A DNA stretch of 63,997 bases, filler included, from Basidiobolus ranarum (lineage: Eukaryota), in the NCBI GenBank assembly GCA_040143965.1. It is 3 parts of 3 records of this genome, joined end to end, with 100 filler letters (N's around TTAATTAATTAA, not from the genome) between each part and the next. Parts side by side here need not be neighbours in the genome. Positions count along the whole stretch, not along the records: positions 22,812 to 45,464 come from JASJQH010000181.1; 2 more parts are not named here. One strand, 5' to 3'. A program made the translations under genes and the position numbers. Position 1 is the stretch's first letter. The number at the start of each line of letters is the position of its first letter. The notes below the pieces were generated by a model. That model worked only from the letters and a program-made list of their open reading frames with translations, made no database searches and was not told the DNA's origin. Shown here piece by piece: positions 30,693 to 38,696 of this stretch.

Positions 30693-31137
30693 ATAAATTA
30701 CTCGAAACATCCTCAGTGATTTATATGCTCCACACTGCTATTGAAATTATGGGTTTCCATAACTCATGGTATATAGATGTAGGATTGTAATTCAATATTT
30801 TAGGCGTACAAGACCATCATAGCGTTCACCATAATTTAAATCATTGATAAATCGGATGTTTTAGGTGGTATATTACTCAACATTTATCAGAGTGAAGTGG
30901 TTATACTTGTCATTTTTTCTACATCTAGCCATCATCGGGAGTACATCGAATTTTGTTTTAGTTTACATTGATTCATTTATGTGTTATGTTAGAGTAAATA
31001 AGCTTAGGGCATTGGTGAATACTAAAAAAATTTAAAAACAATTCTATAATTTGCGTTAAAGTTACTTAGGTAGGCATATATCATACACGTCGTGTTATTG
31101 TAACATTACTTGGACATTCGGTTTTTTGAAATAAGTA

Positions 31138-31263
31138 AGCTACTCTATGAAGAGTAGCAAGGAAAAAATTGAACAACTCTCTTGAATGCTCCCCCTCCAC
31201 GGAAATCTTTAGTAAAAGGCGAAAGATTTATCCGACATAATGAAGAGGAAACGAGAGTGAAAC
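31138..31263 (-). ncRNA. U5: U5 snRNA, copy 2
   Basis: Same core as copy 1; 3' hairpin GCTACTCT/AGAGTAGC. Confidence 0.92.
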
Positions 31264-31851
31264 ATATCTAAAAACGATGATGTTTCAAGTAATTTATATT
31301 GCCCATAGATTCCAAACTATTATGGGTTTCAATAAATTTAGTATTATAACTATTGTCATCAATTTTTTCAATTACTAATGCATGTCAAAAAGAAATGTAA
31401 ATATATTTAAGCATTCAAAAAAGGATATTCCGATTTGAACGTTAGAATTTTAGACGTTCTTGGAACAAATCAATCTATCTTCTGCATAAATTCACAAGTT
31501 ATATTTACTCTTTTACTATGTATATATGATACAAGTTAATAATGATGAGTTAGTCGTGTTGGTCCTGGTTGATTTTTTTCTAAATGATATAATTGCAACT
31601 AATACATATTCATCTATGGCTATAGAAGCGATAAGTTCATTAAAATCAGAAGTTTTAGTTTGGGATGGATAAATAGGAATAAGCTGTAGTGAATGAAGAT
31701 AAAATAGATGAACTACTTGTTTCTTTTCACTAACCCCCTACATGATATACACGCTTTTTCCGGCTGTATCCATCGCGCTGTCCGAATTAACATCACTTTT
31801 AAAAGCATATGCTCATGGGACTATGGTATGCTTGTTATTTTACAGTAAATA

Positions 31852-31977
31852 AGCTACTCTATGAAGAGCAGCAAGGAAAAAATTGGACAGCTCTCTTGAA
31901 TGTCCCCCCTCCACGGAAATCTTTAGTAAAAGGCGAAAGATTTATCCGAATCAATGAAGAGGAAACGAGAGTGATAC
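31852..31977 (-). ncRNA. U5: U5 snRNA, copy 3
   Basis: Same core; 3' hairpin GCTGCTCT/AGAGTAGC; promoter spacing is shortened. Confidence 0.88.
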
Positions 31978-33015
31978 GATGCTATGGAGGAAGGTTCGAT
32001 AATTATATAGATATGAAGATTTTATGGGTGTTGTTACAATTTATGATGATCCCAGAGTAATAGATTTATCTAACAATAGATCAGGTGCCACCTGTATCCT
32101 ATATCTGCAACAAAATACTTTAATTAAACTACGCACTCAACCTAGGAGATAAGCGACGCCCCTTCTTTCGAAGCATTTGTGACCCCTCTTGTAAGTTTAG
32201 TGAGCCATTCTTTCTTATCACAGGAGGTCAAAACCAATTCATATTATACTCGGATTGCATTCTAGCGAAACCTCTGAAAGTTGCGACTGATTCCAGGGAA
32301 GAGCATGGCCTTTCTCCCCAAAGAAAAGGATATGCGGGGGTAACTCAATCAATTCCTCAGTCATCCCATCTATAAATCTCGGTATTAACAGTCTCACTAT
32401 AAGCAGTGTTCCAATAGGAAACAATCTACATTCAACTATCTCCTTATTAAGCAACTTGACTGCATGTTTAAATTTACTAGATTCACCTGGTGTGCCCCTT
32501 GGAAAACCTTGTCAGAACAATAACTACGATCACTAAATTGAACTCTACAGAATCTGCTGAACCTGAATCAAGGTGGAAGGGTGGCCACTAAAGTATATAT
32601 AGGATCGACAAGAAGGACCATAAGCAAAAGAAAGGAGAGAAACGTCCAGCAAAGTTAACTTCGAAGTCTCCTTTCTAAAAAGTCTTCTGCTACCTTTATA
32701 TTAGTGAGCACGACACTTTACTTTTGGCTACACCAAATCCCATACAGACCTTTGATTCCTTTTCTCACCGACTTGCTGATAGCAATAGTCGAGGTGATTT
32801 GTTTCGTTTCGGTGTCAACTGAGTCTTTTTGATTTTACAGTAAGTGTATCAACTTGAACCTTTGGTGACATAGAATACTAACAACAACTAGTATTATTTA
32901 TACCCAACCAGGGACAAACATCGAATATACCTCTTTTCCAGCTTCAGAGCACTCCCCTTTTGATTTTTGCCCGCTAGATAGGATAGTTTACAAGGCGTGC
33001 GGACAGTACTTAATC

Positions 33016-37254: not shown

Positions 37255-37636
37255 TTCGACCTTGTTTTTCAAAACAATCAAACTATATGTTCATTCATTA
37301 TCTGCTTATTTTGTAACACGGTTTAAGCAAAATATTGTTTTAGGCTGCTAAAATAATCTACAAATTATGCCAATCTAGATCTAAGCCACTTGACGTCATC
37401 AGTCAAAGAGATAAATCAAAGTTAGATGGCTTTTCCTTAAGTGATAACATATACACAACATGTTACACGGGACATAATCCAATTCCGGGTACTAACATAA
37501 ACAGCAAAAGCCCTGAATGATCACGAGTAAGATGACCAATACATCATCCAAGGCTCATCAGGATCATGTAGCTAGTCCTCAAAAAGAGCGTCTTTCATCA
37601 CTCAAAAAAAATGAGCAAGTAGACAAGATAAAATAC

Positions 37637-37726
37637 CTCATACTCGTCTCTTTTTCATTAATCAGATAAAGCTTTCGCTTTTTACTAAAGATTTACGTAG
37701 TGAAGGCACATTCAAAAGAACTATCC
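37637..37726 (+). pseudogene. Decayed U5 copy (copy 7)
   Basis: GATAAAGCTTTCGCTTTTTACTAAAGATTTACGTAG; loop I is mutated, and there is no Sm site, 3' hairpin or upstream ACCCAYA element. Confidence 0.8.
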
Positions 37727-38185
37727 TTGAGTGAGCGGCTCAACTAGCATTAGTATTATAATATTCCAAAGTTAGTTGAGGCAGAATCGCTCACTTTTGA
37801 CACAAAGCTATTAGAAAGCCCATAACCCTATATTTGTGGCGTCTAACCTAATATACCACTAAACATACATCAATATCCATGGTTATAGAATAGGTGAACT
37901 ACTGCCAATATAATATATTGTCTCGGTGTTCTTAGATTGTCAAGAATGAGAATGTGTTACGATTCTCCAATACATGAAAAACCTCACACTTGAAACATAC
38001 CCTTAATTACTGGATACAATGTTTTAGAAACCCTCCTGATTTTGGGTAAGTCACAGTTGCCCAAGTTGATGAGATCAATATAGATACAGCATTTTATAGC
38101 GTCAATATTGAAATATATGGTAACCCATAATTCATTTATCTCATCGTTTGGAATAAAACAAACAGAGATCATGACCATGAGCAAT

Positions 38186-38311
38186 ACATCACTCTCGTTT
38201 CCTCTTCATTATGTCGGATAAATCTTTCGCCTTTTACTAAAGATTTCCGTGGAGGGGGAACATTCAAGAGAGTTGTCTAATTTTTTCCTTGTCACTCTTC
38301 AAAGAGTGACT
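38186..38311 (+). ncRNA. U5: U5 snRNA, copy 8
   Basis: Same core; 3' hairpin GTCACTCT/AGAGTGAC. Confidence 0.92.
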
Positions 38312-38696
38312 CTCTTTCAAAAATAACGAAAACAGTTGACAGTATGTGTGATTTGACTCGCATATCTTGTACGGAAGTCATTAAAACTTTAATTCATTTA
38401 GATGGATTGAAAGGATTTTCGCCTTTAATTCCTATGATTACATCGTTGTCTGAGGGGGGTTTGATGAGGCATTGGTTCGAGCTCATAGAAAATGGGAGTA
38501 CAATGAATAATATCTTATTGTCAGATATCTTGTGCCGAAACCAATCTTGGTTACTTCTACAAATTCGTTACAATCTGACACCTCAATCAATTAATTATTT
38601 GCGATAGTGGAGTTATGATAGATATTCATCGAAACCCACAATTTCAATGGCTATATTGAGCGAATATAAACCTGAAACAACATGGGTAGGGCGTAT

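Follow-up and report, generated by a model that had tools for sequence, protein, structure and literature searches.

A putative two-element promoter shared by eight clustered U5 snRNA genes of the early-diverging fungus Basidiobolus ranarum

Whether the fungal ancestor transcribed its small nuclear RNA (snRNA) genes from promoters of the proximal sequence element (PSE) or upstream sequence element (USE) type, as known from animals and plants respectively, is a question on which a 63,997-bp stretch of DNA (hereafter the window) from Basidiobolus ranarum, an early-diverging (zoopagomycote) fungus, now bears. The window holds eight full-length U5 snRNA genes, recognized by the Rfam covariance model RF00020 with 81-88 bits and thus all above its gathering cut-off of 40 bits, and each of the eight is preceded on its sense strand by the element GAAACCCAYAAT and, further downstream, by a TATA-like box. 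To our knowledge, most of what is understood about fungal snRNA transcription comes from budding yeast, which lacks the complex SNAPc. Our literature search, whose coverage left out most subscription papers, turned up no early-diverging fungus for which an snRNA promoter element had been described; Davila Lopez 2008 contains no promoter analysis, and a preprint on histone 3'-end formation mentions neither promoters nor Basidiobolus.

Two conserved islands upstream of the U5 genes

The association between the element and the U5 genes is a tight one. The word AACCCAYAAT has six exact matches in the window where 0.48 would be expected, each of the six lies upstream of a U5 gene, and not one of 100 shuffles of the window reached as many as six. 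The two remaining genes carry variants of the element, copy 3 having ACACCCATAAAA and copy 4 ATACCCATAGG, so that the count matrix over the eight copies reads G5 A7 A6 A8 C8 C8 C8 A8 Y(6T,2C) A8 A7 T6, with the A at -1 relative to the first C, the three C residues and the A residues at +3 and +5 being invariant. The core is CCCACA in copies 5 and 8 and CCCATA in the remaining six. The eight element sites that a preliminary description of this DNA had listed were all found where it placed them, and each runs in the sense direction of a U5 gene. The shorter word ACCCAYA occurs 16 times in the window as a whole, against 12.5 expected, that is to say about as often as chance would have it outside the U5 promoters, and none of these outside sites is paired with a TATA box in the sense orientation.

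That the element is the best-conserved word of the upstream region emerged from a scan that did not presuppose it. When the 150-bp stretches preceding the eight genes were searched for shared 10-mers, the best word was AAACCCATAA, with 6 mismatches summed over the other seven copies, whereas none of 60 mononucleotide shuffles yielded a best word with fewer than 12 (mean 14.2). Mean pairwise identities among the copies tell the same story: the element reaches 0.86 (0.56 when shuffled) and the TATA octamer 0.75 (0.57), whereas the 60 bp of far flank stand at 0.54 (0.52) and the spacer between element and TATA box at 0.47 (0.44). The stretch from TATA box to gene stands at 0.54 (0.46), and the U5 gene itself at 0.90 (0.51). 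By their leaders, of which there are two types (ATGTTT-CACTC and AT-CACTC), the genes fall into two subfamilies, A (copies 1, 2, 6 and 8) and B (copies 3, 4, 5 and 7), and over the 16 pairs that cross the two subfamilies the spacer identity is at chance level, with an average of 0.45. Element and TATA box therefore stand out as conserved islands in saturated DNA, some 55 bp away from a conserved gene, and purifying selection is the simplest reading of the two blocks.

It could still be asked whether the element and the TATA box are a functionless leftover of a duplicated unit, for the U5 genes are paralogues gathered in a single cluster. Yet flank and spacer are at chance identity while the two blocks are not, and the 10-mer scan sets the element well apart from anything obtained by shuffling. 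Conversion tracts spreading from the gene offer no explanation either, because about 55 bp of diverged DNA separate the element from the gene. We regard a duplication residue as most improbable and, given flanks at chance identity, as close to refuted; the prospect raised in the preliminary description, that the element might turn out no better conserved than its flank, is thereby ruled out.

A second possibility, to which we accord even less credence, is that the element belongs to something else upstream, e.g. the end of a mobile element that carries U5 or the signal of a divergent transcript. The dispersal of the copies, at spacings of 489-1189 bp and on both strands around a gene with Sec7 and PH domains, might be taken to suggest as much. 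However, orientation and distance of the element are tied to the U5 start in all eight copies, the far flank is at chance identity, and nothing is shared upstream of the element: a search of both strands from -340 to -76 for a third or distal enhancer-like element revealed none that stood out from 25 shuffles, the best words scoring 7 against a null mean of 5.5 for K=8 and 12 against 11.2 for K=10.

Two decayed U5 fragments lie downstream of copy 6, to which they are 85% (37202-37254) and 81% (37643-37715) identical. The former corresponds to the 3' half of U5 and lies about 80 bp after copy 6; the latter corresponds to the 5' part and scores 30.7 bits with Rfam, below the cut-off. No element was found upstream of either fragment within 3 mismatches.

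Spacing, start site and polymerase

The two conserved blocks stand at a nearly constant distance from one another and from the gene (Table 1). Counted from the first C of the element, the TATA-like hexamer follows after 28-30 bp in seven of the eight copies and after 19 bp in copy 3, while model position 1 of the Rfam alignment lies 63-67 bp downstream in all copies other than copy 3, for which the value is 55 bp; in copy 8, where 38 bp are duplicated in tandem, the count ends at the first of the two units. The TATA box takes the forms TATAAA, TATATAA or AATAAA and starts 35-39 bp before model position 1. In the preliminary description the TATA box had been put 25 bp after the CCC in five copies and 26-27 bp after it in two, which agrees with our values of 28 bp (five copies) and 29 and 30 bp once the count is taken from the first C. 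The pairing is all but confined to U5 genes: among the 59 CCCAYA sites of the window only eight are followed by a TATA-like hexamer at +24 to +37, the background rate being 1.7% per site. Seven of these composites belong to U5 promoters; the remaining one, a chance occurrence in antisense orientation, falls within the promoter of copy 2. The spacer of that copy holds an inverted core, CCCATA followed 13 bp on by TATGGG, which forms a small palindrome between element and TATA box (31300-31330, minus strand) and accounts for this one extra composite.

The start of the Rfam U5 model aligns to the C of CACUCUCG. A pyrimidine-A dinucleotide, a candidate for the transcription start, is found 2 nt upstream of the model start in the four copies of subfamily B (3, 4, 5 and 7), the distance being 6 nt in the four of subfamily A; we infer that a start at this dinucleotide would lie 30-36 bp beyond the TATA box and 53-64 bp beyond the CCC. 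The earlier figure of 57-61 bp between the CCC and the RNA in seven copies comes out as roughly 57-62 bp in our recount, which runs from the last C to a start lying 2-6 nt before the model start. Two further observations concern the stretch between TATA box and gene. Copies 2, 6 and 8, which together with copy 1 make up subfamily A, share TGAAACA(T/A)C after the TATA box, and copy 1 displays an 11-bp micro-inversion, its positions 30704-30714 being the exact reverse complement of GAAACATCCTC at 36974-36984 in copy 6.

As to the polymerase, a run of T residues ends transcripts of RNA polymerase III (Pol III), and the Sm site of U5 comprises a run of six T; because this run would terminate Pol III, U5 must be a product of RNA polymerase II (Pol II). 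Transcription of U5 by Pol III was on these grounds rejected. Oligo-T termination of Pol III is also stated in bioRxiv 10.1101/2022.07.06.498962, a source which further reports that the plant USE works together with a TATA box and that a distance of 66-67 bp from the start directs transcription to Pol II whereas one of 54-55 bp directs it to Pol III.

Copy 3 deserves mention in this respect. Its element lies 9 bp nearer to the TATA box than is the rule (19 versus 28 bp), and its distance to the gene is 55 bp where the other copies have 63-67 bp (32003-32032, minus strand), a spacing 9-10 bp below that of those seven; it also has, in ACACCCATAAAA, the weakest flanks of the eight elements. The shortening amounts to one helical turn and is the same step as the one that, according to the plant study, switches plant snRNA genes from Pol II to Pol III. 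As a bolder conjecture, a plant-like spacing code for the choice of polymerase may operate here too. The gene itself is a U5 gene with the internal run of six T.

Copy 8 is unusual in a different way, for 38 bp at its 5' end are duplicated in tandem (38701-38738 and again 38739-38776), with the junction at a TTTCGC microhomology. Its promoter stands at the normal distance from the first of the duplicated units, and the transcript would accordingly be a U5 RNA with a 5' extension of 38 nt, unless the copy is disabled.

A proposed factor for the element

Taken together, we consider it very probable from the sequence comparisons that selection maintains element and TATA box as the two parts of a basal promoter of the U5 genes. 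In the mechanism that we propose, a basal Pol II promoter would be made up of GAAACCCAYAAT, some 60 bp ahead of the RNA start, and of the TATA box 28 bp or so further on. A sequence-specific factor on the C-rich element would act as a molecular ruler that, by way of TFIIA and TFIIB, positions the TATA-binding protein (TBP) over the TATA box at a set interval, and the start site would thereby be fixed some 30-36 bp beyond that box. As the factor we favour a three-subunit complex of the SNAPc type (the Myb-repeat protein SNAPC4 together with SNAPC3 and SNAPC1) that this early-diverging fungus would have retained; the element would then be to fungi what the USE is to plants and the PSE to animals. 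That SNAPc is the factor in question is a prediction drawn by analogy, to which we give an even chance, and the statement as a whole, namely a two-element Pol II promoter with SNAPc included, is for us likewise evenly balanced.

The plant USE has the consensus RTCCCACATCG. Like the plant combination of USE and TATA box, the promoter described here consists of two elements only, a C-rich one at about -55 to -67 and, at about -30, a genuine TATA box, and the spacing between the two is fixed. The CCCACA core of copies 5 and 8 is also that of the plant consensus, the other six copies having CCCATA; what differs are the flanks of the core, GAAA...AAT here as opposed to RT...TCG in plants, and the host, which is a fungus. 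The element would work like a USE without being a member of the USE by sequence. The parallel that the preliminary description had drawn to plant USE-plus-TATA promoters and to the layout of the animal PSE holds in terms of arrangement, with an element near -60 and a TATA box near -33.

With the animal PSE and PSEA bound by SNAPc (human, Drosophila), the element has in common its position near -55 to -65 and a ruler-like relation to the site of TBP. Human SNAP190 is described as reading little in a base-specific manner apart from a pair of C:G base pairs at PSE positions -62/-61 (PMC9652321), this doublet of the human U6 PSE, contacted by the Myb domain, being a likeness to our C-rich core; SNAPc is said to cover -57 to -35 with TBP at -30 to -25 (PMC9758055) and to work as a 'molecular ruler' (PMC11696126); insect PSEAs are strongly conserved in their 5' half only (PMC1761439), a further likeness; and SNAPc is stated to exist 'in most eukaryotes' (PMC9652321). 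Position, C-rich core and ruler-like spacing of the element make a fit with SNAPc plausible, by analogy with these systems. There are differences as well: vertebrate Pol II snRNA genes have no TATA box (PMC9652321), whereas a TATA box is present on a gene of the Pol II type here, and Drosophila Pol II snRNA genes use a PSEB instead (PMC1761439). Unlike animal PSE promoters, moreover, the U5 upstream regions share no distal enhancer-like element between -340 and -76.

Fungal comparisons lead to the alternative that we take most seriously. The S. pombe U2 gene, reportedly described by Zhou and Lobo-Ruppert in 2001, is said to combine a spUSE at about -55 with a TATA box at about -26, and it resembles the U5 genes of B. 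ranarum in being fungal and in combining two elements, an upstream activator near -55 and a TATA box; the comparison is one of architecture only. In view of this reported promoter, the earlier assertion that yeasts lack such an architecture appears too broad. In budding yeast, snRNA and small nucleolar RNA (snoRNA) promoters combine sites for Rap1, Reb1, Abf1 or Tbf1 with a TATA box, and the U5 promoters are comparable in placing a C-rich site of the Myb type, with a Rap1-like ACCCAYA core, upstream of the TATA box. This core equals that of the budding-yeast Rap1 site, which we take to be ACACCCAYACAYY, and AAACCCATAA is a single inserted base away from what is presumably the telobox/Tbf1 site, AAACCCTAA, a site that marks snoRNA promoters in yeast and ribosomal-protein promoters in plants.

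Hence the element may well be selected and nevertheless be read by a factor other than SNAPc, such as a telobox/Tbf1-like or Rap1-like Myb protein or the binder of the S. pombe upstream snRNA element, in which case the likeness to USE and PSE would be one of architecture only. We hold this to be a sizeable though minority possibility, the more so as the evidence of conservation (the 10-mer scan, the identities and the sense-strand sites at eight of eight genes) is identical for such a factor. What speaks against a general activator of this sort is its manner of placement. Rap1 and Tbf1 are general activators that act at a variable distance from the core promoter, whereas the distance to the TATA box is fixed at 28-30 bp in seven of the eight copies here; similarly, in contrast to the general and variably placed sites of budding yeast, exact AACCCAYAAT matches occur only at U5 genes in 64 kb, and the near-chance occurrence of ACCCAYA elsewhere, always without a sense-orientation TATA box, is not what a general activator would lead one to expect.

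Several points weigh against a SNAPc-bound two-element promoter and should be set out together. The window holds one class of snRNA only, U5, so that use of the element across snRNA classes would be conjecture. The plant consensus RTCCCACATCG is not matched beyond the CCCAYA core, and apart from a run of C nothing in the element evidently resembles the human PSE. Weaker variants of the element occur in copies 3 and 4, the spacing of copy 3 being 9 bp short in addition, and copies 4 and 7 have AATAAA in place of TATAAA. The 5' end of the U5 RNA, from which positions are reckoned, is one that we infer from the sequence. The eight U5 copies are paralogues and hence not independent samples, and the shuffles with which they were compared kept mononucleotide content only. 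Finally, a phylogenomic survey (bioRxiv 10.1101/2020.06.29.177642) describes functional SNAPc as 'mostly absent in fungi', a finding which at the same time favours the factor other than SNAPc, although 'mostly absent' leaves room for early-diverging lineages.

Organization of the cluster and its significance

The U5 genes form a cluster that spans 30572-38860 and consists of a trio on the minus strand and a quintet on the plus strand, at either side of the Sec7/PH-domain gene (approximately 32990-35780), and all eight are transcribed away from that gene; the spacings between copies, quoted above, are irregular. The U5 fold is retained in all eight copies, with compensatory changes at three pairs of the 3' stem-loop, and the copies therefore look like maintained genes rather than dead ones. 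Variants of the terminal stem include CTAC/GTAG, CCAC/GTGG and TCAC/GTGA (e.g. 36562-36583, 38290-38309), and copy 1 has a shorter terminal stem than the others; such compensatory differences among copies indicate that several sequence variants of U5 are kept. Within the 30 bp that follow each U5 gene, a conserved stretch, CTTAYTTACTnnAAAA, comes directly after the terminal stem (e.g. 36584-36603 and, on the minus strand, 31120-31139); it is a candidate 3' box or termination signal. The first 16 nt of the 3' flank have a mean identity of 0.71 among the copies, as compared with 0.52 when shuffled.

Table 1. U5 snRNA genes of the window with their upstream elements and TATA boxes, in order of position. 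Offsets run from the first C of the element to the TATA-like hexamer.
Feature	Position	Strand	Details
U5 snRNA gene, copy 1	30572..30688	-	RF00020, 84.8 bits
TATA box ATATAAAT, copy 1	30719..30726	-	28 bp after first C
Upstream element GAAACCCATAAT, copy 1	30746..30757	-	first C 30753, 65 bp before model position 1
U5 snRNA gene, copy 2	31140..31259	-	RF00020, 85.1 bits
TATA box ATATAAAT, copy 2	31292..31299	-	offset 28
Upstream element GAAACCCATAAT, copy 2	31319..31330	-	first C 31326, 67 bp before model position 1
U5 snRNA gene, copy 3	31854..31973	-	RF00020, 83.9 bits
TATA box CTATATAA, copy 3	32003..32010	-	offset 19
Variant upstream element AACACCCATAAA, copy 3	32021..32032	-	first C 32028, 55 bp before model position 1
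Variant upstream element TATACCCATAGG, copy 4	35906..35917	+	first C 35910, 65 bp before model position 1
TATA-like box CAATAAAT, copy 4	35938..35945	+	offset 29
U5 snRNA gene, copy 4	35975..36094	+	RF00020, 87.4 bits
Upstream element CAAACCCACAAT, copy 5	36397..36408	+	first C 36401, 63 bp before model position 1
TATA box GTATAAAT, copy 5	36428..36435	+	offset 28
U5 snRNA gene, copy 5	36464..36583	+	RF00020, 88.5 bits
Upstream element GAAACCCATAAT, copy 6	36930..36941	+	first C 36934, 67 bp before model position 1
TATA box ATATAAAT, copy 6	36961..36968	+	offset 28
U5 snRNA gene, copy 6	37001..37120	+	RF00020, 81.3 bits
Upstream element GTAACCCATAAT, copy 7	38120..38131	+	first C 38124, 66 bp before model position 1
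TATA-like box GAATAAAA, copy 7	38151..38158	+	offset 28
U5 snRNA gene, copy 7	38190..38311	+	RF00020, 86.5 bits
Upstream element GAAACCCACAAT, copy 8	38631..38642	+	first C 38635, 66 bp before 38701, 104 bp before full gene
TATA box ATATAAAC, copy 8	38664..38671	+	offset 30
U5 snRNA gene, copy 8	38701..38860	+	full gene 38739-38860, span includes duplicated 5' end; RF00020, 85.1 bits

As regards the remainder of the window, no snRNA class besides U5 was found with Rfam at the gathering threshold or at E<=1, a tRNA search of the window found no tRNA genes, and the 44 open reading frames (ORFs) of the window that were scanned against Pfam include no gene for a SNAPc subunit or a Myb protein. One ORF of 368 aa encodes a kinase with 100% identity to a B. 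ranarum protein and 84% identity to a B. meristosporus protein, which bears out the fungal origin assumed in the preliminary description. Two long ORFs, 22871-24595 (574 aa) and 28189-30366 (725 aa), have a weak C-terminal match to CsbD-like proteins, below the Pfam cut-off, and may be paralogues of each other.

The promoter is best filed under the known kind in which a PSE or USE is combined with a TATA box. Eight diverged paralogues in one window amount to a natural footprinting experiment in which the element is defined to the base, and the element so defined is an exact probe for searches of SNAPc orthologues, for DNA-affinity purification and for motif searches upstream of all snRNA genes in early-diverging fungi; genetic tools for zygomycete fungi would also gain from it a compact, well-defined promoter for small RNAs made by Pol II. 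More tentatively, and less likely than not, GAAACCCAYAAT could be the first sequence-defined proximal element of the SNAPc type in Fungi, with a CCCAYA core and an obligatory TATA partner in common with the plant USE, which would imply that a USE-like element with a TATA box was the ancestral snRNA promoter of eukaryotes. If this were true, early-diverging fungi such as Basidiobolus would have preserved the ancestral promoter, and most Dikarya would have lost or replaced it along with SNAPc.

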